A stretch of DNA of 64,000 bases, from positions 78,077-142,076 of the forward strand of contig JAWSVD010000029.1 in the NCBI GenBank assembly GCA_033852095.1, in the 5' to 3' direction. The position numbers were made by a program, and so were the translations under genes. Source of the stretch: Granulosicoccaceae bacterium (GTDB lineage: Bacteria > Pseudomonadota > Gammaproteobacteria > CALCKW01). The notes beneath the pieces are model-generated. The model did not search any database and was not told where the DNA came from. It worked only from the letters and a program-made list of their open reading frames with translations. Below, piece by piece: positions 28,755 through 44,353 of the stretch (within the stretch, counting starts at the first letter, position 1; each line of letters opens with the position of its first letter).

Positions 28755-29711
28755 TCAGTGTCGCCCTTGCTGCTCACGGCCATAGACCAACAGCATGCCG
28801 ACGATAACCGATCCGTAGATGATTTGGCGAAAGGCTTCTGGCATTTGCATGATGGACAACACCGAATTTAACAATACAATCAAGACCACGCCAACCAGCG
28901 TGCCAAGGTAACGCCCGCGCCCACCGAGTATGTGGGTTCCACCGAGTACCACGGCCGCTATTGCGGGCAGCAAGAAGGCGTTGCCCATGCCCTGATAGGC
29001 TTTGGCGCTGTAACCCGCCAGCAGTATCCCAGCGGTAGAGGCGCACAGGGATGAGATAACAAATGCGCCCACTATCACCCAGCGGGTGCGAATGCCCGAA
29101 AGAAAAGCAGCGCGCTCCTTTGCACCCGTGGCGTAGATGGATTTACCAAACCCAGTGCGAGTCAGGATGCCGGCGATCAGCAGAGACACACCCGCCCAGA
29201 CAAAAATAGCCACTGGCAGACCGAATAATCTGTCCGCTGCCAGATAGCGCATCAAGGGTGATGCTTCCGTCTGCGGGGCAAAACCGCCTGTGTGGGCAAC
29301 CATCAGCCCCCGCAACACGGAATCAACACCGAGTGTGAAAATCATTGACGGTATACGCAGACAGGAAACACCCAGCCCATTGATTACCCCGACCACTAAT
29401 CCCACAGCCAATCCCGCTGGTATGGCCCAGTCCCCTCCCACGGTAGTGGCCATCATGGCTGCAGCAGTCAGTGTCCAAGGTACAGACAAGTCAATGTGCC
29501 CCAGCAAGATCACCGTCATCATGCCCGCGGCACAGATGCCCAGGAACGCCCCTATTTGCAGTTGCAGCAGTAGATAGGCCGGCGACAACATCGGTGCTGT
29601 GCCCTGTGTGGTGAGCGTGTAGGCGGTACCCACCAGCACAATCGCAACGATAAAGAGCAGAGCAATAACAATGGGCCGATTTTCCGCCGACACACGATTG
29701 AACACATTCAT
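28755..29711 (-). CDS. Sugar ABC transporter permease (RbsC-like)
   Basis: GHIDLSV, IPSMIFTLG, FGKSIYATG, IAAVVLGGT.ILGGRG. Confidence 0.9.
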   Translation of the reverse strand: MNVFNRVSAENRPIVIALLFIVAIVLVGTAYTLTTQGTAPMLSPAYLLLQLQIGAFLGICAAGMMTVILLGHIDLSVPWTLTAAAMMATTVGGDWAIPAGLAVGLVVGVINGLGVSCLRIPSMIFTLGVDSVLRGLMVAHTGGFAPQTEASPLMRYLAADRLFGLPVAIFVWAGVSLLIAGILTRTGFGKSIYATGAKERAAFLSGIRTRWVIVGAFVISSLCASTAGILLAGYSAKAYQGMGNAFLLPAIAAVVLGGTHILGGRGRYLGTLVGVVLIVLLNSVLSIMQMPEAFRQIIYGSVIVGMLLVYGREQQGRH

Positions 29712-30751
29712 CGAAACAGCTCCAGTTTATTCTTCACTCTAAAAGTGCGCAGCGCCCCTAGGCTAACCGCCGCAAGTAATACAAGCCCTTCGATTAACGG
29801 TTGCAGCAGAGGGTCGATGGACACAATACGGAAATAAAAGGAGATCAACCGCAGAATACCCGCACCTATCAGCGAGCCAATGGCACCGCCAATGCCCCCC
29901 AATAATGACGTCCCTCCGAGCACAACTGCAGCGATGGAATTCAGCGTATAGGCCCCCGCCTGTGCCACATCGGCGTTCCCCGAGGAGGTCTGTATCGCAA
30001 GGTAGAGCCCCCCGCAGGATGCGAAAAAACCAGCCAGCGCAAAGGCCGCTATCTTGGCGCGCGCGACGGGCAGCCCCGAAGCATAGGCGGCGCCTTCAGC
30101 GGAACCTATCGCGTAGACTGTGCGACCGGTCAACGAGCATTTGAATGGGATCCAGACACCAAAGCCTATGACCAACAGGATGATCAAGGGCACAGGAATA
30201 CCGGCAAAGGGCTGCAGCCAAGCCGCGTGCCCATCGTCAGCCAAACCGTAAGTCTCGGCGAAATCGAAGACTGCGTTTGTCAGTGCCCAATTCAAATCGC
30301 CGTCGATATCGCCCCCAGGAGTGGGCCTGATCAGCAGTGCCAGACCCATGGCAATGGCACCGGTCGCCAATGTGGCGATGATCGGCTGAATACGTCCGTA
30401 CACCACAATCAAGCCGTTCATCAAACCAAATGCCGTCCCGACGGACAGCGTCAGAAGCATGCCAAGTAGCATTTGTGCGGGTGAGCCCGTGACCACGTGC
30501 GAGGCCACGGTGTTGGCCAATGTCATCACCGCGCCCACCGACAGATCAAGGCCACCCACCAACACCGGGATTGTCTGCGCCATCGCCACAAAGCCAATGG
30601 CCACACTTTCGTTGGCATTCTGCACAAAAACCGCGGTGGAGAAACCGCGCGGATGCAGCATGTGGTAACTGATAAAAAACACCGTGAACAGCAGCAGAGC
30701 CCCCGAAAAGGCCCTGTTACGCAGTATCACGGACTTAAACTGTCGCATCAC
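29708..30751 (-). CDS. Sugar ABC transporter permease (RbsC-like)
   Basis: GGLDLSVG, IQPIIATLA, GRTVYAIG, LNSIAAVVLGGTSLLGG. Confidence 0.9.
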   Translation of the reverse strand: MMRQFKSVILRNRAFSGALLLFTVFFISYHMLHPRGFSTAVFVQNANESVAIGFVAMAQTIPVLVGGLDLSVGAVMTLANTVASHVVTGSPAQMLLGMLLTLSVGTAFGLMNGLIVVYGRIQPIIATLATGAIAMGLALLIRPTPGGDIDGDLNWALTNAVFDFAETYGLADDGHAAWLQPFAGIPVPLIILLVIGFGVWIPFKCSLTGRTVYAIGSAEGAAYASGLPVARAKIAAFALAGFFASCGGLYLAIQTSSGNADVAQAGAYTLNSIAAVVLGGTSLLGGIGGAIGSLIGAGILRLISFYFRIVSIDPLLQPLIEGLVLLAAVSLGALRTFRVKNKLELFR

Positions 30752-32265
30752 GCCACGCTCCCCTCTTGAATGTTGAGTGAAGCTGCCACAATGGCCTCTT
30801 CTGTGAGTTTGTCCCCAGAGAGCTCACTCACCACTCGACCGTCGTAGATGATCGACACCCTGTCGCAGCAACCGATCAATTCGGCGTAGTCGGTTGAATA
30901 GAAAACAATCGCCTTTCCAGCGTCAGCGAGATCGCGCATAAGACTGTATATTTCCTGTTTGGTACCGACGTCGATACCGCGTGTTGGGTCGTTGAGCAAT
31001 ATCACATCGGGGTCCGACATCAACCACTTGGCAATCACGACCTTTTGCTGATTTCCCCCAGAGAGGGTATCTACAGCAACCATGGCACTCTCAGCTTTGA
31101 TGTGCAGTTTTTCGATAGCCTTGTCGACTACATCTCGCGCCAGAGAACGATCGATCAACGGCCCGCGCGAAACGCCCGCGTAATTGGGCAACAGTAAGTT
31201 ATCCGCAATCGATAACGGCAACATCAGACCCTCTGTTTTACGGTCTTCGGGCACCAACGCAATTGCCTTCGCTTTGCAGCGTGCAGGGTCACGTGGTTGA
31301 AAGCCTTTCCCTTTAAATTCGACTCGGCCTTTGACTCCACGCAACACGCCAAAGAGTGCGAGCAGAAGCTCTTTGTGGCCTTGCCCGTCCAGACCGCCAA
31401 GACCCACGATCTGGCCAGCAGCCACTTCAAGATCGATGCCTTTGAGTCGATCCTCCCAGCGCAAATCTGATACTTTCAATACCGGTTGATTGTTCTCTCT
31501 TGGCGGGGGCTTTGGCGGGTATTGCGCTTCTATATCGCGGCCGATCATCAATCGAACAATCTCCGCTTCGTTCAATTCACCCTTTCCAAAAGTCTGGATA
31601 TGCTGACCGTTGCGAAACACGGACAAGCGATCACACAGTGCTTCGACTTCATGCATGCGATGGCTGATAAAAAGACAGGCCACACCGTCAGCACGCAACT
31701 CGTTCAACAGGGCATAGACTGTTTTCACGTCGCCACTTGTCAGCGCAGACGTCGCTTCGTCCAGAATCAATACACGCGGTCGCTTGGAAATGGCTTTCGC
31801 TATCTCCACCATCTGCCGTCGTGACAGGCTCAGGTCCCGTACCAGCATGTCTGGATCCACATTGCCGCAGTTTATTCTGAGCAAAACCTCAGCAGCCATG
31901 CGGCGCTGAACCTTTTTGTCAATCAGCCCAAACCGCCGCGGCGGATTGTCTATGAATATATTGTCCGCAACCGACAGGTCGGGGATCAGTGAAAGCTCCT
32001 GAAAGATGCAAACGATGCCATCGGCTGTAGCCTCAGATGGAGAGCCGTATTGCACTGCCTGGCCGTTGACCAGCAGACTGCCTTCGGAGGGATCGAGCAC
32101 GCCCGACAGAATTTTGATGAGGGTCGATTTGCCCGCGCCGTTCTCACCGAGTATTCCGTGCACTTCTCCAAGATGGCAGGAGAAATTGACGTCCTTAAGC
32201 GCAGTGACTCCGCCAAAATAGCGCGAAACCCCTCGCAATTGGACGAATCCAACAGTATTGGACAT
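30748..32265 (-). CDS. Sugar ABC transporter ATP-binding protein (two NBDs, RbsA-like)
   Basis: [35 protein letters not shown]. Start reassigned to ATG 32265. Confidence 0.92.
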   Translation of the reverse strand: MSNTVGFVQLRGVSRYFGGVTALKDVNFSCHLGEVHGILGENGAGKSTLIKILSGVLDPSEGSLLVNGQAVQYGSPSEATADGIVCIFQELSLIPDLSVADNIFIDNPPRRFGLIDKKVQRRMAAEVLLRINCGNVDPDMLVRDLSLSRRQMVEIAKAISKRPRVLILDEATSALTSGDVKTVYALLNELRADGVACLFISHRMHEVEALCDRLSVFRNGQHIQTFGKGELNEAEIVRLMIGRDIEAQYPPKPPPRENNQPVLKVSDLRWEDRLKGIDLEVAAGQIVGLGGLDGQGHKELLLALFGVLRGVKGRVEFKGKGFQPRDPARCKAKAIALVPEDRKTEGLMLPLSIADNLLLPNYAGVSRGPLIDRSLARDVVDKAIEKLHIKAESAMVAVDTLSGGNQQKVVIAKWLMSDPDVILLNDPTRGIDVGTKQEIYSLMRDLADAGKAIVFYSTDYAELIGCCDRVSIIYDGRVVSELSGDKLTEEAIVAASLNIQEGSVA

Positions 32266-35553: not shown

Positions 35554-36126
35554 TTAAGCCAACGACGTCACCCGCAGCTGCGCCGAGTCTCTGAGCAAAT
35601 CAATGCTGCCTACCTCCACATCACTGATGGACGCATCGACGCGCGACCTGAGGTCTCGCAGCAGCTCCTCTCGGTGCTCCTGCTTCAGGTTATCGACCCG
35701 GTCATATACCACCACCCGAGAGAAACTCCGCGGCGCGAACAGCTGGGTCTCCGCACCCGCCACCATCAGGCACAAGAAGGCGTTCAACAGCGCGAGTTCG
35801 AGCAATGTGATGGGCCCGACCGCCGCCATCAGCGACATGACAATGACGATGAACAAATAGGTCATGTCCCGCAGGGATATGGCCTCGGTGCGGTACCGCA
35901 ACATGGAGAGCACGGCAAACAAACCGAAAGCAAAGCCCATCGATATGTCCACGTCGTGCATCAGCGCGCTGATGATGTAGACGCCGTGGCCAAAGAGGTA
36001 GAAGCCAAACATAGCATCTCGACTCGCTAAGTGCCGGAAATACACGACCCTCAGCAAAACAGTCAAGACAACAAAGTTGATTAAAAGTCGGAGAATAAAG
36101 TCTGAGGAAAGCGATTCACTGATCAC
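35554..36126 (-). CDS. DUF4956 membrane protein
   Basis: MGFAFGLFAVLSMLRYRTEAISLRDMTYLFIVI motif and C-terminal GSIDLLRD..L.V domain. Confidence 0.85.
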   Translation of the reverse strand: MISESLSSDFILRLLINFVVLTVLLRVVYFRHLASRDAMFGFYLFGHGVYIISALMHDVDISMGFAFGLFAVLSMLRYRTEAISLRDMTYLFIVIVMSLMAAVGPITLLELALLNAFLCLMVAGAETQLFAPRSFSRVVVYDRVDNLKQEHREELLRDLRSRVDASISDVEVGSIDLLRDSAQLRVTSLA

Positions 36127-36159
36127 TGTCTATCCCTTTTAAAGTTAAGTGGAGAAGGA

Positions 36160-36987
36160 TCACGCCGCCAGAGGGCGTGCAATTTTGTGGAACAAATTTC
36201 GTTTCAAATTTGCATCAGCGGTGTGGTACACGCCCATGCAATATTTACTGAAAGAGCATTGACGAATGCGGTGACGCTTGGCCCACTGGAAGAACGGTGA
36301 TTTTCGGCAGTGACTGCCCTGCTTCAGCTCCACCACAATCCACGGGCCAATATTCCAGTGCAAGTTGCGGCCGTGGGTGTCGCTGAAATCGAGGTTCACG
36401 TCAATCGTCAAGCGCTCACCCTGCGCTTCATTGGCCAGGGCAATGCGTTGATAACCGCTGGCCTGTACTTTCACGAGATCGTCCGGCTGCTCAAGCCCGC
36501 AGTCGCGCATAAATGCAAGCGAGGTCGGGGTGATGGCCCGGCTCGCAGAGCTGACCTTGATGCGTTGTTTGTTGGTGCGCTTTTTGTTGTTTTTAAATTT
36601 GACCTCCAAATACGATGTACCACTGTCCACGTAGGTTCTGCAACGCACTTTGTAGCGATTCACCTGGCCGTTGTGGTGCGCCGCGTAGAAAGCAAAATCC
36701 CGCGTGTCATAGTAGTCATTCATATAATCACAACAGCGCTTGCCATCAATTTCGAGCATGCTGTAGTGCACCTGCATGCTGTCGAGCAGATCAGGCAACA
36801 GCGCGCGCGGCACCACAAATTTACTGTCCACCCTGTCCATCAGAGCCGCGTTCTTGAGGTCTGCCAATCCGTGCCCTGTGTAGGCTTGAATTTCTGCCAC
36901 ACAATCCGCCGGGCCAGCTGCCGCTAGCGCCACAACGTCTTCGGTTTCGGCTTCGACCGAATGCTCAACACTTGTACAACTGTCCAA
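36160..36987 (-). CDS. VTC-domain (CYTH/polyphosphate polymerase-like) protein
   Basis: RVDSKF, YYDT, YKVRCRTY, YLEVKFK, YQRIAL, ERLTID, VELK and FSKY are the conserved CYTH/VTC tunnel residues. TTG start with AGGTGG RBS. Confidence 0.85.
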   Translation of the reverse strand: MDSCTSVEHSVEAETEDVVALAAAGPADCVAEIQAYTGHGLADLKNAALMDRVDSKFVVPRALLPDLLDSMQVHYSMLEIDGKRCCDYMNDYYDTRDFAFYAAHHNGQVNRYKVRCRTYVDSGTSYLEVKFKNNKKRTNKQRIKVSSASRAITPTSLAFMRDCGLEQPDDLVKVQASGYQRIALANEAQGERLTIDVNLDFSDTHGRNLHWNIGPWIVVELKQGSHCRKSPFFQWAKRHRIRQCSFSKYCMGVYHTADANLKRNLFHKIARPLAA

Positions 36988-37325
36988 AATCCCACCTATT
37001 CGAGAAGTTAAAGGGCTCCTGTCTGCTAGTCTTCAGGCCGCAGTGTGCACAGCTGTAAAATCAGCTGCCCTGAAATCAGACGGATTCAATCACTGACGTG
37101 ATCATGAATATTGTCGGTGTTATGCAGCGGAGCATCTCCGCTGCTGAAGTGATTTGCTGCAAGACACTCGCCCCGCAGCGGCCCTCATCACCGCCCTGCA
37201 AACTACCTTTGCGGTAGATTTATGCCACTGAAGGGCCGCTCGCCAGAAAATTTCTTAGCTCGCTCCCTTCAGCCTCCTAGATCCTGCTCCTATCGCCTGC
37301 CGCGCAGGCCCCAGCCGATCACTGA

Positions 37326-39149
37326 CTACTGGACATTCGACACGCCTTGAGTGGCCGTGAAGGTCGCGAAATCGCTGCCCCCGCTGTAACTTCCGCTGCT
37401 CAGCAAACCATCCTCAATGTCGCCACTCATGCTGCCACCGACGCTGACGGTGTAAGCAGTGCCCGCCGTCAAGCTAGGCGCTGAATAGACAAACGAAGCG
37501 AAGGATTTGCTCGGTGCGAAGCTCAGCAAGGAATTGCTCGAAGCGTCGCGAATGTTGATCGCCGTGCCCGCGGACTGCATGCCCGACAGCGCCAGCTTGA
37601 GCGAATTCTGCGCGGACGAAGCGCTGGGTGCCTGTGCCATGCCAGCACTGCCAGCGGCCACCAATACACCGCCACTGATAACAAAGCTGCCGTCGTAGTC
37701 GAGCGCGCCATTGCCGCCGCCAGTGGGCCCGTTCACCAACACCGTGCCGCCGCTCATGGTGATTGATCCATTGGCATCCAGGCCATCGCCCTGGGCGTCG
37801 ACGACAATACGACCACCGGTGATGTTCAGCAGATTGCCCTCTGCGGTCACGGCCGCTGCTCGCGCACCGCCACCACCAAAACCAGGCCCCTGCCCACCGC
37901 CCGAGCCGTCGTTGCCGCCCGCCACGTTGATGCCATCATCAGAGGAGACAACGTTCACGCTGCCGCCATTGACGTTGATGATGGTGGCCTCGAGGCCTTC
38001 ATAGGATTCCGTGACGACGATCGAGCCCGCGTTGACCGTCAACTGGGTGTCGGCGTGTAGCCCGTCGTCCCCTGTCGCTATGTTGAAGTTGCCGCCGTTC
38101 ACCTCGATGATATAGCCCGAGTGCATCGCGTCATCGGGCGAGTCGAGCAGCAGCGTGCCGCTACTGACTTCGATCACCACGCCCGCCTTTAAGGCCTTGG
38201 CCGAATCCTCAGCGGAAATCACCTGGGTGTGCCCGCCGGCGGTGGTGATGTCCAGGGTGGCACCGCCGCTGACCAGAATATCGCTCGCCGCTTGAATGCC
38301 GTCCGCCTGCGCGGCCACGTGTAGTGTCCCGCCCTCTACCGAGACATAGCCCTTGGCCGCGTCGCTGTCGTTGTTGGATCGCAGCCCATCGCCACCGGCT
38401 GTCACGTCGACGGCGCCGCCTAACAACACCAGGTAGTCCTTGCCGTCTATGCCGTCGTCCTGGGCTATCACCGTCAGGTTCTCAGCGTTCAATACCAAGC
38501 CGTCTTTAGAGGTGATCCCGTCTGCGTACTGACCCGTCACCAGCAGGTTGCCCGCGCCGATGATACTGAGATCGTCGGAGCTGAAGACTGCCGCGTTCGG
38601 CTCATCCAACTCCGCGTCCGGGTAGACGTAGCTGGTCGCGTCGGTGAGGCGATTGTCCGTACCGTCCAGCACCACCACGACTGTCTTGTCAGCCTGCTCC
38701 ACATTGATAGCGGCACTGCTGCTGTGATTAATGTCCACATTGTCGAGCAACAGCCACACGGTACCGTCGGCCTCGCTGTCAACCAGCACGCCGCCGTCGG
38801 TGGTCGCACCGCTCAAGCTATAGACGCCCGGCTCGGAGATCGTCACTTGCGCACCCAGTGCGGCAGCGCCGTTGCCGGTCACGCTGACCGTGCTGCCGTT
38901 GAAGACTATCGCTGTGCTACTGCTGCCGTAGAGATAATCCGCAGCGTCATCGTGGTGCGGCTTGTTTTCTACGGCGGCCGCTGTGGCCAAGTCCGCGATA
39001 TCTGTCGTGTCAGTGCTCTCGCTTGTATCTGTGCTGCCGAGCAGATCAGGATCTTGCGTGTCCGCGCTATCACAGCCCGCAGTGGTCGCCGCAAGGGCCA
39101 GCCATATCAAGCTCGCCAGTTTTTTCTTTTCCATCATCAAGTGGTGCAA
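37326..39149 (-). CDS. Cthe_2159-family (DUF4353) beta-helical carbohydrate-binding lipoprotein
   Basis: Lipobox TAG-C; VTI..PG.Y.LSG, EPNAAVFSSDDL.I.G.G.L.V, many DG-I/L repeats (DGITSKD, DGIDGKD, DGIQA, DGLHA, DGLDANG), GNGALDYDG...GG. Start could be 39137-39149. Confidence 0.85.
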   Translation of the reverse strand: MHHLMMEKKKLASLIWLALAATTAGCDSADTQDPDLLGSTDTSESTDTTDIADLATAAAVENKPHHDDAADYLYGSSSTAIVFNGSTVSVTGNGAAALGAQVTISEPGVYSLSGATTDGGVLVDSEADGTVWLLLDNVDINHSSSAAINVEQADKTVVVVLDGTDNRLTDATSYVYPDAELDEPNAAVFSSDDLSIIGAGNLLVTGQYADGITSKDGLVLNAENLTVIAQDDGIDGKDYLVLLGGAVDVTAGGDGLRSNNDSDAAKGYVSVEGGTLHVAAQADGIQAASDILVSGGATLDITTAGGHTQVISAEDSAKALKAGVVIEVSSGTLLLDSPDDAMHSGYIIEVNGGNFNIATGDDGLHADTQLTVNAGSIVVTESYEGLEATIINVNGGSVNVVSSDDGINVAGGNDGSGGGQGPGFGGGGARAAAVTAEGNLLNITGGRIVVDAQGDGLDANGSITMSGGTVLVNGPTGGGNGALDYDGSFVISGGVLVAAGSAGMAQAPSASSAQNSLKLALSGMQSAGTAINIRDASSNSLLSFAPSKSFASFVYSAPSLTAGTAYTVSVGGSMSGDIEDGLLSSGSYSGGSDFATFTATQGVSNVQ

Positions 39150-39316
39150 CTCCAGTTTTTAAGCCCCGGCCATACCACAGATAGCTGTGTCGGCACATGC
39201 GTGTTCGTGTTACTCACCGCATATTCTGTGCTTACTATGGCTCGCAAATATGGAGTTGCTGTGAAGATTATCTGACGAATATAGGCAGTGCCAGCTGAGC
39301 TTGCTATACATGCAGG

Positions 39317-40784
39317 ATGAACTTAAGAATTTGGCACAAACTCGCCCTCGCCCTGTGCATCGGTATCAGCCTACTGATGCTGGCGATGGCCTACGTCTCC
39401 AGTTACGGCGTTGAGCACAGCTTTAGAAACTACCTCAATACGCAACAGCAACAGCGGGCGCTACAGCTGGAAGAACAGCTCATTGAAGATTATGAGCAGC
39501 GTGGCGACTGGCGTTTCATCCAGGACCAGCAAGAGTGGCACGCCTACCTGCATTGGATCGAAGACGACGGCATGCCGCACAAGGGGCCTGATCCGCACCC
39601 CGACAAGAACAACGACAGCCATTCACCTGGCCGTTCACCGGGAAACGCGCCCAAACGCGCAGGCAAAGGCTCCAAGCACCGCTTCTCACTCACTGATGCG
39701 GACAAGCAGCTGCTGTTCGGCGCGGCAATGGACGAGCAGAAACACCACGACACCGCCTTGCAGCTGCGCGGGGAAACCATCGGCTATTTGCACTACCGGC
39801 CCTTTAACGCTGGCCACATGAGCAAAAAGGACCGGGCATTCCTGCAGCAGCAGCACAGCGCGCTGATCCACCTCGCCTGGATCAGTTTTGTACTCGCCGG
39901 TGTTTTCTCTTGGCTGGCCTCCGCCTATCTGCGCAGCCGCATCCGACCGCTGTCGAACTTTTCGCAGCAGCTGTCCAACGGCAATTACGACAACAAATTG
40001 AGTGTGCCGGGCAATGATCAGCACGATGAACTGGGGCAACTGGGGGCGGACCTGAACCACCTCTCCCAGGCGCTGGCGCAGGGGAAATCCGCACGGGAAC
40101 GCTGGGTTGCCGATATCGCCCATGAGCTGCGTACGCCGCTGTCCATACTGCACGGCGAGATCGAAGCCATGCAGGACGGCATTCGCCCACTCGATCAAGC
40201 TGCTCTACAGTCCTTGCTCAGCGAGACCACCCAGCTGAGCCGCATCGTGGAGCAGTTGCGCAAACTGAGCCAGGCGGAAATGGGCGAGCTGCACATCGAG
40301 CGCAGCGATTGTGACCTGGCCGAAATCCTGCGAAACGTCAGCGATAACTTCTCGGCCCGCTTTGCTGCCGAAGAGATCGCGCTCACGCTGCACGTACAGG
40401 CAAACACCGCCCACCGCTGCTGGGGTGACGCTAGCCGCCTGCATCAACTGCTCAGCAACCTGCTGGAAAACAGCTTGCGCTACACCTGTGCAGCTGGCCA
40501 ACTGGCCAACTGGCCAACTGGAGATAAATCTGCACACGGCGGATGAAGAAATCTGTGTGGTGTTTGAGGATTCCGAGCCCGGAGTAAGTAACGAGCAACT
40601 TCCTCTGCTGTTTGAACGGCTCTACCGCGCGGAAAATTCCCGCAACCGCAAGACCGGAGGATCCGGCCTTGGCTTGTCTATCTGTCAGGCGCTGGTGCGC
40701 GCTCACGGCGGGCACATGAACGCCGAACACGCCGCCCAAGGCGGATTAAAAATCACCGTGAAGCTGCCCGTCCATCATGACTAA
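39317..40784 (+). pseudogene. BaeS-like sensor histidine kinase frameshifted by an 8-bp tandem repeat
   Basis: TM-periplasmic-TM-HAMP, H-box DIAHELRTPL and N-box NLLENSLRY lie in the frame ending 40546. G1 (EDSEPG), F (LFERLYR) and G2 (GGSGLGL) boxes lie in the frame ending 40784. Removing 16 bp (40502-40517) joins them into one 483-aa ORF. Confidence 0.88.
40494..40521 (+). repeat. Octanucleotide tandem repeat (CTGGCCAA)3 + CTGG
   Basis: ctggccaa at 40494, 40502 and 40510, plus partial ctgg at 40518. Confidence 0.95.
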
Positions 40785-41478
40785 AATCATTGCCATCGTC
40801 GAAGACGAAGAAAAAATCGCCCGCATCCTGATCGACTACCTCGAAGCCGAGGGTTATGCCTTGCGCTGGATTGCGGACGGGAAGCAAGCTTCACAATGGC
40901 TTGCAGAAAACACCTGTGATCTGATTTTGCTGGACCTGATGTTGCCCGGAAAAGACGGCATGACCCTCTGCGATGAGATCCGCAGGCTCTACCAAACACC
41001 TGTTTTCATCATCACCGCCAAAGCTGAAGAGCTGGACCGGATCAAGGGTTTGGAAACTGGCGCTTATGACTATATTTGCAAACCCTTCAGCCCGCGCGAA
41101 GTCGTGGCCAGGGTCAATGCTCTGTTTCGGTTGCTTGCGGCGCAAGGTTTGAACACGTTGACGGAACAGCCGGCTCAGCGCATGCAACTCGAGCCGCATA
41201 TCCACAGGGTGAGCTACGCCGGCACATCAGCTGACCTGACCCGCGCCGAATACCGCCTGCTGGAAAACATCTCCGCCAACCCAGACAGTGTCTTCTCACG
41301 CCAAGCGCTGGTGCATCTGATCTACGACGACAACCGAGTGATCTCCGACCGAACGATCGATTCACACATAAAAAACCTGCGCAAGAAGCTCGACAACATC
41401 GGTCTGCGGCACAATCCGATCCGCACCGTTCACGGGGTCGGGTACAAGTGGAATAGTTTCGAAGAGACCCTTGAATAG
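40777..41478 (+). CDS. OmpR/BaeR-family response regulator
   Basis: IVEDE, LLDLMLPG, DYICKPFSPREV, DRTIDSHIKNLRKKL, RTVHGVGY. Overlaps the restored kinase 3' end. Confidence 0.93.
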   Translation: MTKIIAIVEDEEKIARILIDYLEAEGYALRWIADGKQASQWLAENTCDLILLDLMLPGKDGMTLCDEIRRLYQTPVFIITAKAEELDRIKGLETGAYDYICKPFSPREVVARVNALFRLLAAQGLNTLTEQPAQRMQLEPHIHRVSYAGTSADLTRAEYRLLENISANPDSVFSRQALVHLIYDDNRVISDRTIDSHIKNLRKKLDNIGLRHNPIRTVHGVGYKWNSFEETLE

Positions 41479-41611
41479 GGTTCCATAGCACATGGGGCAA
41501 AGCTCGGTGAGAGACACCGAGCAAACAACAGCCTGAGGAAAACAGAGTGGCCAAGCGGCCAGCGCCCCCTCAAGAGGCCGGCGCGTTTCGCCGGCCCAAA
41601 GACAACAAGGC

Positions 41612-43432: not shown

Positions 43433-44353
43433 ATGACCATCCAGATTTTTGGCCACAAGTCCCCCGATACAGACTCCACCGGATCCCCGCTGGTGTGGTC
43501 ATGGTATCTCAATGAAATCAAAGGCATAGCTGCAAAGCCCATGCTGCTGGGTGAGCCCAACACCGAAGCGCTGTTTGTGCTCGAGCGCTGGGGCTTTGAT
43601 AAACCCGAGATCATGACAGAGCTCGCTGACGGCGCCGACTGCATCATTGTTGACACCAACAACCCCGCTGAGCTGCCCACCAACATCAACGACGCCAACG
43701 TCATCGCGATCATCGATCACCACAAGCTGGTGGGCGGCCTGGAGACAAAAGGCCCCATCGACATCACTATCCGCCCCTTGGCTTGCACCGCGACCATCAT
43801 GGTCGACATGATCGGCGACGACATGGCGAAAATGCCCGACAACATCAAGGGCGCAGCACTGTCCTGCATCTTGTCAGACACATTGGAGTTTCGCTCGCCC
43901 ACCACCACCGAACACGACATCGCCGTGACCAAGCGCTTGGCCGATGAGCTGGGTATCGACATCCCCGCCTACGCCGCCGAGATGTTTGCCGCTAAGTCCG
44001 ATGTGTCTCGCTTCTCCGACGCCGAATTGCTGCGCATGGATTCCAAGGAATACACCATCGAGGGCACCGCCTTCCGCGTGTCTGTGTTGGAGACGACGTC
44101 ACCGCATATGGTCTTGGACCGCAAAGACAGCTTGATGAGCGCCATGGTGGACGTGGCCAAAGAAGACGGCGCCGACCAGGTGTTGTTGTTCGTGATCGAC
44201 ATCCTGAACGAAGAGGCCACCCTGCTGGTGCCCAACGACATGGTCAAGACCATCGCAGAGAAGTCCTTTAACGCGACTGTCAGTGGCGACACAGTGGTTT
44301 TGCCGGGCGTCATGAGCCGCAAGAAGCAGATCATGCCCTTCCTGACACTCTGA
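43433..44353 (+). CDS. ppaC: Mn-dependent inorganic pyrophosphatase (family II, DHH/DHHA2)
   Basis: GHKSPDTDS, IVDTN, IIDHH, ILSDTL.FRSPTT, VMSRKKQ. Confidence 0.94.
   Translation: MTIQIFGHKSPDTDSTGSPLVWSWYLNEIKGIAAKPMLLGEPNTEALFVLERWGFDKPEIMTELADGADCIIVDTNNPAELPTNINDANVIAIIDHHKLVGGLETKGPIDITIRPLACTATIMVDMIGDDMAKMPDNIKGAALSCILSDTLEFRSPTTTEHDIAVTKRLADELGIDIPAYAAEMFAAKSDVSRFSDAELLRMDSKEYTIEGTAFRVSVLETTSPHMVLDRKDSLMSAMVDVAKEDGADQVLLFVIDILNEEATLLVPNDMVKTIAEKSFNATVSGDTVVLPGVMSRKKQIMPFLTL

Follow-up and report, generated by a model that had tools for sequence, protein, structure and literature searches.

A VTC–DUF4956–Cthe_2159 gene module beside a two-component system in a gammaproteobacterium, with a possible role in polyphosphate synthesis and export

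Three intact, co-oriented genes in a 64,000-nucleotide stretch of a Granulosicoccaceae genome (the window, here meaning that whole stretch) encode an acidic Cthe_2159-family lipoprotein, a VTC-domain enzyme with the residues of yeast Vtc4, and a DUF4956 membrane protein, next to a sensor kinase and a response regulator. As the best of several readings, though short of regarding it as probable, we infer that the module corresponds, in split form, to the VTC machine of eukaryotes, with polyphosphate (polyP) synthesis coupled to export. The VTC enzyme would dock on a DUF4956 oligomer from the cytoplasmic side, at the conserved LRYRTE loop and the ACT-like domain, and would build a polyphosphate chain from the gamma-phosphates of ATP. 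This chain, or phosphoryl groups of it, would cross the cytoplasmic membrane to the envelope, where the Cthe_2159 beta-helix would bind, hold or process it along with a polymer of the cell surface. Control of expression would fall to the neighbouring two-component system, which is BaeSR-like and of the envelope type. An earlier sequence-only reading of this DNA had given the exact coordinates of the three genes; from its interpretation, the conserved trio, the Vtc4-like enzyme and the extracytoplasmic partners are supported, and polyP production, the DUF4956 channel and the outer scaffold stay conjectural.

Bacterial polyP is thought to come from the cytoplasmic PPK1/PPK2 enzymes, and a widespread enzyme of the Vtc4 type, linked to a membrane protein and to exported partners, would add a second route. 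If true, this could account for the energy source of phosphoryl chemistry outside the cytoplasm, where ATP is absent. The module is readily testable, with small proteins that are soluble enough for expression and with tractable carriers in Paenibacillus and B. thetaiotaomicron.

The VTC enzyme and its DUF4956 partner

The VTC gene (36160..36987, minus strand) encodes a soluble, cytoplasmic protein of 275 aa that passes the threshold of the Pfam VTC family (PF09359, 1.5e-21; 77.4 bits, cut-off 23) and matches Vtc4 3g3q at 3e-14 in a profile comparison. Residues R52/K56, R115/R117, K130, K140/R142, Y179/R181, R192, E220/K222 and S247/K248 align to the Vtc4 catalytic set, and an alignment of 42 homologues has these positions invariant or nearly so. 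The claim of intact tunnel motifs is thereby confirmed, the full catalytic residue set being kept, catalytic lysine included. The inactive Vtc2/3 proteins are reportedly without the lysine K200, whose equivalent the window enzyme retains. In Vtc4 itself the catalytic residues are reported to be K200, R264, R266, K281, K294, R361, R373, E426, S457 and K458 (Hothorn et al. 2009). The AF2 model (pLDDT 87.8) adopts a triphosphate-tunnel beta-barrel fold, and its top Foldseek match is Vtc4 3g3r (E 1e-14), with YgiF, thiamine triphosphatase and other TTMs ranking behind. VTC is the sole domain detected; residues 1-25 are disordered, and the protein has no signal peptide, no N-terminal SPX domain and no fused C-terminal three-helix transmembrane domain. 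By its residues, it is an enzyme with a complete Vtc4 polyphosphate-polymerase active site, and polyP synthesis is predicted for it. PPK1 is encoded elsewhere in the genome, which argues that the VTC module does not serve bulk polyP storage. The searchable literature contains no assay of, or experimental function for, any bacterial VTC or DUF4956 protein, in agreement with what had been said of bacterial VTC-DUF4956 loci.

The DUF4956 gene (35554..36126, minus strand; 190 aa) starts 33 nt downstream of the VTC stop codon. Its product covers positions 1-167 of the 169-position profile PF16316 (5.3e-47; 160 bits, cut-off 30.6), which represents a family of 8051 representatives at E <= 1e-3 (50% identity). 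The AF2 model (pLDDT 86.9) comprises five transmembrane helices and a C-terminal beta-alpha-beta-beta (ACT/dodecin-like) domain; this domain and the RYRTE loop are predicted to be cytoplasmic from a positive-inside count, and R77, within the conserved LRYRTE loop, is invariant in the homologue alignment. A Foldseek search of the model against PDB folds returned nothing better than E 0.07, a profile search of the PDB matched no VTC chain and gave no similarity to the transmembrane domains of Vtc1/3/4, and comparison with solved channels revealed no detectable similarity. Sub-threshold matches to MgtC (PF02308) were obtained for 5 of 40 family members (best E 0.012), and hhalign paired the two families with a probability of 11% and E 0.0028. 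The proposed role of DUF4956 as a membrane or channel subunit thus gains no support as regards a channel: similarity to the VTC transmembrane parts was not detected, and the architecture is only MgtC-like. The same result speaks against the synthesis-export reading itself, as MgtC is a regulator and not a pore.

The lipoprotein, the spacer and the regulators

The Cthe_2159-family gene (37326..39149, minus strand; 607 aa) is assigned by PF14262 (1.3e-85; 287 bits, cut-off 25.8), and residues 75-304 of its product align to the beta-helix repeats of the C. thermocellum crystal structure 4peu at 1.7e-39. The N-terminus, read from the sequence, is of the lipoprotein type (KKK-LASLIWLALAATTAG-C), with the lipobox TAGC and Asp at +2, and the true start probably lies a few codons inside the ORF, at MEKKK. 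The protein is very acidic (pI 4.05, 74 D+E vs 17 K+R). These matches, the N-terminus and the isoelectric point uphold the description as an acidic beta-helical lipoprotein; its proposed place as an outer scaffold gains no such support, and the +2 Asp could even mean retention in the inner membrane. A protein of such acidity cannot bind polyP without bridging cations, which counts against the synthesis-export reading. Cthe_2159 binds cellulose and, as a polyanionic sugar polymer, polygalacturonic acid, and it resembles PL9 lyases (10.1101/401869); the sequence-only reading described it as calcium-binding too. In near-identical strains the allele is 95% identical, with a mosaic pattern of divergence along the gene.

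Between the Cthe_2159 and VTC genes lies a 338-nt structured spacer (36988..37325, minus strand), possibly a leader or terminator region. Its predicted RNA fold has an MFE of -143.6 kcal/mol (z = -3.99 vs 100 shuffles); it has no Rfam match and its sequence is unique in the genome. Homology to the relative L139 stops 2 nt upstream of where VTC starts. The three-gene operon claimed earlier thus holds as regards co-orientation, but the spacer had been overlooked, and with 338 nt between Cthe_2159 and VTC a single operon is not assured; VTC-DUF4956 may be a transcription unit of its own.

Divergent from the trio, as had been described, are two plus-strand regulatory genes. The BaeS-like sensor histidine kinase (39317..40784) is split into two ORFs, 39317-40546 with HAMP and HisKA and 40311-40784 with HATPase_c, which match NCBIfam BaeS models at positions 5-374 and then 371-461. 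The OmpR-family, BaeR-like response regulator (40777..41478; 233 aa, Response_reg and Trans_reg_C) has a start that overlaps the kinase stop. With 257 bits against a cut-off of 500 for the kinase and 274.5 bits against 380 for the regulator, the pair is, on model scores, only BaeSR-like and not a pair of BaeSR equivalogs. The kinase frame is broken by a tandem tract, (CTGGCCAA)x3, read directly at 40494..40517 on the plus strand. One copy of this 8-nt repeat would restore the frame (...RYTCAAGQLEINLH...); two Logan contigs with 98.3% identity to the window have two copies, likewise out of frame, and the 8-nt deletion maps at 40494. The earlier account was right that both a kinase and a response regulator are present, but it missed the frameshift, which means that the module may be silent here. 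Its word "dedicated" is sustained by recurrent adjacency alone: the kinase is broken, and the nearest homologues of this two-component system elsewhere have VTC or DUF4956 in 0 of 80 loci.

The intergenic promoter region from which Cthe_2159 and the kinase gene diverge (39150..39316) contains a single weak site of the sigma-70-like kind, at 39294-39267 on the minus strand, and is 6% divergent from the near-identical strain L315, with 0% divergence in the flanks. Neither upstream region in the window contains a Pho box, the best score of 8/14 being at or below the shuffle mean of ~9. Neighbouring genes in the window encode a gluconolactonase, a GntR regulator, a sugar ABC transporter and an aldehyde dehydrogenase, and a family II pyrophosphatase gene lies 2 kb from the module. 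The host is a marine-type gammaproteobacterium.

Recurrence of the module and competing explanations

Of 80 loci retrieved by way of VTC, 76 have DUF4956 next to it. Retrieval by way of Cthe_2159 gave 55 loci, of which 37 contain the full trio, nearly all of these in Bacillota; 25 of the 37 also have an adjacent response regulator and histidine kinase. The trio arrangement is more than chance, and its conservation, which the sequence-only reading had both claimed and named as a point on which it could fail, is borne out by this co-occurrence analysis. All recurrent third partners are extracytoplasmic, namely the Cthe_2159 lipoprotein, CotH kinases with lipoprotein signals, OprO/P-type porins and DUF2490 barrels (of the 80 VTC loci, 49 have CotH, 37 DUF2490 and 19 Porin_O_P), which is consistent with transfer of something over the membrane.

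In a phylogenetic tree, the window VTC is nested in a CotH-linked Cellvibrionaceae clade (support 99/94), and the Cthe_2159-linked VTCs of Bacillota form a separate deep clade. Members of the Gram-negative clade to which the window enzyme belongs usually have CotH kinase and an OprO/P porin as partners. In a relative whose VTC is 78% identical, 928 bp separate an aldehyde dehydrogenase gene from VTC-DUF4956, and neither Cthe_2159 nor the two-component system is present; the 4.6-kb block of Cthe_2159 and regulators is an indel relative to L139, and VTC is absent from five genomes of the same genus. Gene order and regulator subfamily differ from those of the Bacillota modules, and VTC and DUF4956 are deeply diverged from theirs, which shows that the window module was assembled independently. 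That Cthe_2159 and two-component partners joined a VTC-DUF4956 pair of Gram-negative type on a separate occasion is evidence, from comparison, for the parts working together.

Several other explanations bear on the same data. A rather unlikely one makes VTC and DUF4956 a regulatory or homeostatic pair, in which an MgtC-like DUF4956 would modulate another membrane machine or the phosphate/ATP balance, VTC would be a triphosphate or short-polyP hydrolase or a sensor, and the exported neighbours would be merely co-regulated. The architecture of five transmembrane helices plus beta-alpha-beta-beta, the weak MgtC matches (5/40 members; hhalign E 0.0028) and the hydrolytic nature of other TTM enzymes, with YgiF and thiamine triphosphatase next in the fold ranking, agree with it. 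So do the data from Streptococcus intermedius, where a phenotype followed loss of DUF4956, described as MgtC-TM plus ACT, and none was reported for loss of VTC. The hhalign probability is nevertheless low, the VTC protein has polymerase-type residues and is nearest to Vtc4 rather than to hydrolases, and this reading does not explain why pairing with exported or outer-membrane partners is nearly obligate in different phyla. Inward phosphate scavenging, which we consider unlikely, would take in polyP or pyrophosphate through an OprO/P-type porin or surface proteins and across the inner membrane through DUF4956, with VTC hydrolysing it or converting polyP and ADP to ATP. Porins of this type and Pho-box-like sites are phosphate-uptake hallmarks and to that extent argue against export: in 19 of 80 loci the gene immediately downstream of DUF4956 encodes Porin_O_P, and sites scoring at least 11/14 precede 5 of 31 gammaproteobacterial operons, compared with 2.4% of shuffled sequences and 1.8% of the remaining intergenic regions. 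Exo_endo_phos phosphoesterases adjoin some loci, and the pyrophosphatase gene of the window is of the same tenor. The five Pho-box loci, however, are closely related Cellvibrionaceae and therefore not independent; the window lacks a Pho box and its genome any Porin_O_P, Firmicute modules have neither outer membrane nor porin, and we know of no VTC enzyme that runs in reverse.

A similarly low probability attaches to surface-polymer modification, in which VTC/DUF4956 would supply phosphoryl groups, as polyP or by way of a lipid or glycan intermediate, for phosphorylating or cross-linking an exopolysaccharide or wall polymer outside the cytoplasm; Cthe_2159, as a pectate-lyase-like binder of polyanionic sugars, or CotH, with its kinase fold, would be the enzyme that acts on the polymer. 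To our knowledge, no CotH-fold kinase uses polyP, and glycan-synthesis genes are absent from the flanks of the window module. The proposal overlaps the synthesis-export reading and differs from it only in the fate of the product. In its favour are the VTC/DUF4956/CotH genes contiguous with Gram-positive pel loci (10.1101/768473), the effect of this gene set on Pel-dependent aggregation (PMC12345266), the binding of cellulose and polygalacturonate by the PL9-lyase-like Cthe_2159, the joint occurrence of CotH and Cthe_2159 upstream of VTC in the Myxococcales locus L110, and fusions to Lamin Tail Domains in both partner families. It is most improbable that the module is a remnant of recent acquisition, now inactive, whose Cthe_2159/two-component adjacency is an insertion accident and whose broken kinase reflects decay. 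The frameshift, present in the window and in a different form in two near-identical contigs, would suit this, as would the lack of VTC in the five same-genus genomes, the 4.6-kb indel and the mosaic divergence of Cthe_2159. Against it, none of the three structural genes is disrupted or has lost a conserved residue, the same combination in 37 of 55 unrelated loci indicates that the adjacency is not accidental, and a variable-copy repeat is equally compatible with reversible switching. A bolder form of the synthesis-export reading, which we hold to be very doubtful, is that bacteria have a PPK-independent split VTC machine, in which a Vtc4-like polymerase on a DUF4956 oligomer extrudes polyP through the cytoplasmic membrane as both energy and phosphoryl currency of an envelope that lacks ATP, that interchangeable extracytoplasmic users (CotH kinases or, in the window and in Bacillota, calcium-dependent Cthe_2159 beta-helices) bind the polymer or transfer it onto surface glycans, and that in this lineage slipped-strand changes of the 8-nt repeat in the kinase turn the entire module on or off.

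Comparison with known systems

The eukaryotic VTC complex (yeast Vtc4/Vtc3 or Vtc2/Vtc1; 3g3q, 3g3r, 7ytj, 8i6v) shares with the window the tunnel catalytic domain, the Vtc4 residues and an enzyme obligately tied to a membrane component, and its yeast product ends on the far side of the membrane. The window module, in contrast, is without SPX, a fused transmembrane domain or a Vtc1-like subunit, its DUF4956 is unrelated in sequence and fold to the VTC membrane parts, and its putative regulator is a two-component system where eukaryotes use inositol pyrophosphates. PPK1/PPK2 would share the proposed product, polyP from ATP, but have an unrelated fold and a cytoplasmic product. MgtC is, like DUF4956, a small multi-transmembrane protein with a cytoplasmic ACT-like C-terminal domain; homology is not established, MgtC genes do not lie beside VTC enzymes, and the genome of the window has none.

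The only genetic data for the family come from the cotH/VTC/DUF4956 set, which has the same core and an exported third protein. These genes, with VTC as "polyphosphate polymerase", accompany the pel loci of Gram-positive bacteria as accessory genes (Whitfield et al., 10.1101/768473), with SIR_1592-1594 as the set of S. intermedius, and C. perfringens NELoc-2 (PMC2879425) is a further carrier. In S. intermedius, deletion of DUF4956 or CotH cut aggregation by >50%, and the VTC-gene deletion, the sole one published, brought no reported change; the authors also gave the MgtC-TM plus ACT description (PMC12345266). In the window, the third protein is a Cthe_2159 beta-helix lipoprotein and not CotH, pel genes are absent nearby, a two-component system is present, and the organism is gammaproteobacterial; the genome has just one CotH+LTD lipoprotein gene, which lies outside the module, on contig C167 beside tol-pal. 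The RR-HK/VTC-DUF4956-Cthe_2159 modules of Paenibacillus, Clostridia and Enterococcus comprise the same five families and are known from annotated genomes only, no publication on them having been found. They place Cthe_2159 last and the response regulator before the kinase, where the window has Cthe_2159 first and the kinase before the response regulator; their identity to the window proteins is 15-23% for VTC and 13-19% for DUF4956, and their regulators belong to a different OmpR subfamily. The system can thus be called undescribed only in part, as the VTC/DUF4956(/CotH) core is already in print (10.1101/768473; PMC12345266; PMC2879425), and the variant that joins this core to Cthe_2159 and the regulators was not found in these publications.

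Gene content and predicted proteins

The module comprises three intact, co-oriented genes on the - strand, encoding the Cthe_2159 protein (37326-39149; 607 aa; Pfam Cthe_2159, 1.3e-85), the VTC-domain protein (36160-36987; 275 aa; Pfam VTC, 77 bits against a cut-off of 23) and the DUF4956 protein (35554-36126; 190 aa; Pfam DUF4956, 5e-47), exactly where the sequence-only reading had placed them. None of the three is matched by an NCBIfam model. Opposite the trio, on the + strand, lie the sensor kinase and response regulator that the same reading described. The kinase, with HAMP, HisKA and HATPase_c domains, is spread over two reading frames (39317-40546, then 40311-40784), and the OmpR-type regulator lies beside it; their best NCBIfam models are BaeS and BaeR, each below its equivalog cut-off. 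Two features had been overlooked, namely the kinase frameshift and a structured 338-nt spacer between the Cthe_2159 and VTC genes (36988-37325, - strand). This spacer folds far better than its shuffles (MFE -143.6, z = -3.99) and is unique in the genome rather than a genomic repeat, and an Rfam search of the spacer and the intergenic region matched no RNA family. It may act as a leader, attenuator or terminator region. Since the VTC and DUF4956 genes are just 33 nt apart, this pair may form a separate transcription unit. A gene for PpaC, a family II manganese-dependent inorganic pyrophosphatase, is found at 43433-44353 (+; score 368 bits, cut-off 283), 2 kb from the response regulator and on the far side of an ExaC-type aldehyde dehydrogenase.

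The VTC protein has no signal peptide. A PDB search with the single sequence returned no match, and a profile of 42 homologues was required to reach the Vtc4 catalytic domain (3g3q, 3e-14). In the resulting alignment, R52/K56, R115/R117, K130, K140/R142, Y179/R181, R192/T194/D196, E220/K222 and S247/K248 fall on Vtc4 catalytic positions, and these residues are invariant among the 42 homologues except K130 and R142, each kept in at least 90% of members. The AlphaFold2 model (pLDDT 87.8) retrieves Vtc4 first in a structure search (E 1e-14), followed by YgiF and other tunnel triphosphatases. The earlier description of intact tunnel motifs is therefore borne out. Judged by profile and predicted fold, the protein is closest to Vtc4, and alignment and model together place a Vtc4-like active site on a cytoplasmic protein.

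DUF4956 is a small membrane protein and the near-obligate partner of VTC; its conserved arginine loop and its soluble domain are predicted to be cytoplasmic. In its confident AlphaFold2 model (pLDDT 86.9) five helices precede a beta-alpha-beta-beta domain. By the positive-inside count the N-terminus lies outside, and the LRYRTE loop, with invariant R77, lies on the cytoplasmic side, as does the C-terminal domain. PDB sequence and profile searches and Foldseek gave no significant similarity to any solved structure, and by the same searches a known channel was not matched. Natural VTC-DUF4956 fusions were not seen. Four long DUF4956 proteins of the representative library (P0284, P0273, P0315 and P0332) join DUF4956 to CotH or DUF2490; these are probably merged neighbouring genes, because the junction still contains a complete signal or lipoprotein peptide in the three that were read (P0284, P0273 and P0332). 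If real, such joins would mean that the C-terminal domain of DUF4956 is cytoplasmic.

The Cthe_2159 protein carries a signal of the lipoprotein type, in which residue +2 is Asp, and a linker that is acidic, as is the protein as a whole to a high degree (pI 4.05). It aligns with the Clostridium thermocellum Cthe_2159 crystal structure (4peu) at 1.7e-39. Some close homologues (P0128, P0205 and P0221) carry a Lamin Tail Domain, one of them a dockerin as well; this accessory domain is common to some Cthe_2159 homologues and to CotH partners of VTC-DUF4956.

Partners and history of the module

Two samples of loci describe the company that these genes keep. In the first, 80 loci reached from the VTC protein and belonging to Cellvibrionales, other gammaproteobacteria and Bacteroidota, DUF4956 follows VTC in 76 and Cthe_2159 occurs in none. 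Several other partners recur: a CotH kinase lipoprotein, in many cases bearing a Lamin Tail Domain, is present in 49/80, a DUF2490 outer-membrane barrel in 37/80, an OprO/P-type phosphate porin in 19/80 and a BaeSR-like two-component system in 3/80 (Oleiphilaceae, Bermanella). The third partners of VTC-DUF4956 are all extracytoplasmic. The trio itself is conserved, being complete in 37 of 55 loci reached from the Cthe_2159 protein of the window, and 25 of these 37 have an adjoining response regulator and kinase. Trio loci are almost all from Bacillota (Paenibacillus, Clostridia, Enterococcus). A Myxococcales locus has the order Cthe_2159-CotH-VTC-DUF4956, and no Cthe_2159-VTC linkage was found in the other Gram-negative relatives of Cthe_2159 (Bacteroidia, Cytophagia, a gammaproteobacterial MAG, Chloroflexi).

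A maximum-likelihood tree built from 119 VTC proteins divides into two deep clades. In one, the window protein is nested (99/94 support) within CotH-linked Cellvibrionaceae, and the other holds the Bacillota proteins linked to Cthe_2159, so linkage to Cthe_2159 arose at least twice. A Logan contig of a related organism (L139), with a VTC gene 78% and an aldehyde dehydrogenase gene 84% identical in DNA to those of the window, has the order aldehyde dehydrogenase, 928 bp without a convincing ORF (L139:1435-2362), VTC-DUF4956. The block with the Cthe_2159, kinase and regulator genes (window positions 36990-41588) is an indel relative to this contig, and homology restarts two bases before the VTC start codon. 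The separate clade and this indel history imply that assembly of the same five families took place independently here, around a VTC-DUF4956 pair of Gram-negative type. This is the best comparative case for their working together. None of the 5 same-genus genomes compared has VTC, nor do 35 class-level genomes. The genome's RuvB gave matches of only 77-78%, to MAGs of Granulosicoccaceae and Thiotrichaceae. The window's genome encodes a single CotH, a lipoprotein of 807 aa whose C-terminal domain is a Lamin Tail Domain (contig C167:32129-34552), which is unlinked to the module and lies downstream of the tol-pal cluster; its architecture is that of the VTC-linked CotH partners in relatives. PPK1 is likewise encoded away from the module.

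Comparison with L315, a Logan contig 98.3% identical to the window overall, reveals mosaic divergence. The two ends of Cthe_2159 (4.8%) and its promoter region (6%) differ by about 5-6% (tracts 37400-37900 and 38600-39300), part of a sugar ABC transporter differs by ~2-4% (29000-31200), and VTC, the spacer, the flanks, SGL and GntR are identical. Changes between the near-identical sequences number 49 synonymous and 30 non-synonymous. This pattern suggests recombination tracts or mixed-strain assembly.

Regulation of the locus

The kinase frame is broken by three tandem copies of CTGGCCAA (40494-40517). With one copy the kinase would read RYTCAAGQLEINLH in frame, like its BaeS relatives, and only one or four copies would open the frame. 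Both near-identical Logan contigs, L315 and L316, have two copies as against three, and are likewise out of frame. The tract is thus unstable across the window and these two contigs, all alleles seen being OFF, and it is a candidate for either a slipped-strand, reversible switch or decay.

The two-component system had been called dedicated to the module. Its adjacency does recur (25 of the 55 Cthe_2159 loci), but co-inheritance does not hold: VTC and DUF4956 occur in none of the 80 loci of the nearest response regulators, one of which has only a short, 160-aa Cthe_2159-like ORF, and the regulators of the Bacillota modules come from a different OmpR subfamily. What ties the system to the module is thus its recurrent adjacency, and it is better described as repeatedly recruited. 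The window locus has no Pho box. Pho-box-like direct repeats (11-12/14 matches to CTGTCATnnnnCTGTCAT) lie upstream of 5/31 gammaproteobacterial loci, against 2.4% of shuffles; these five precede CotH-VTC-DUF4956 operons (L008, L016, L026, L003 and L020) in related Cellvibrionaceae and are not independent.

Possible function and relation to known systems

On the favoured reading, modelled on the yeast VTC complex, polyphosphate (polyP) would be made from ATP at the membrane and passed to its far side; in the envelope, the polyanion-binding beta-helix would then hold the product or act on it. This reading, drawn by analogy, is offered tentatively, at clearly less than even confidence. Against export stand the lack of resemblance between DUF4956 and the VTC channel, a porin and Pho-box context typical of uptake, and deletions in S. 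intermedius, where loss of VTC gave no phenotype and loss of DUF4956 or CotH did (PMC12345266). A relation of DUF4956 to MgtC, proposed in the same study, is weakly indicated, and it is unlikely that VTC and DUF4956 form an MgtC-like regulatory pair.

Inward scavenging of polyP or PPi, the direction to which the porin context points, appears a little less probable again; no Porin_O_P was found in the window's genome. A glycan-modification system, for which the description of the Cthe_2159 family as a PL9-like beta-helix that binds cellulose and polygalacturonate (10.1101/401869) would speak, is equally doubtful. That the module is a decaying acquisition, as a broken kinase frame within an indel might suggest, is very improbable.

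Earlier papers record VTC, DUF4956 and CotH together next to Gram-positive pel loci and in NELoc-2 of C. perfringens (10.1101/768473; PMC12345266; PMC2879425). The designation of an undescribed system consequently fails for this set, but stands for the variant with Cthe_2159 and a two-component system, on which a literature search found no publication. The pel-locus and NELoc-2 sets have CotH as partner, whereas the window module has Cthe_2159 and the two-component system. The enzyme family is thus already known and the bacterial module already noticed; what is new is this combination of partners and its independent assembly.
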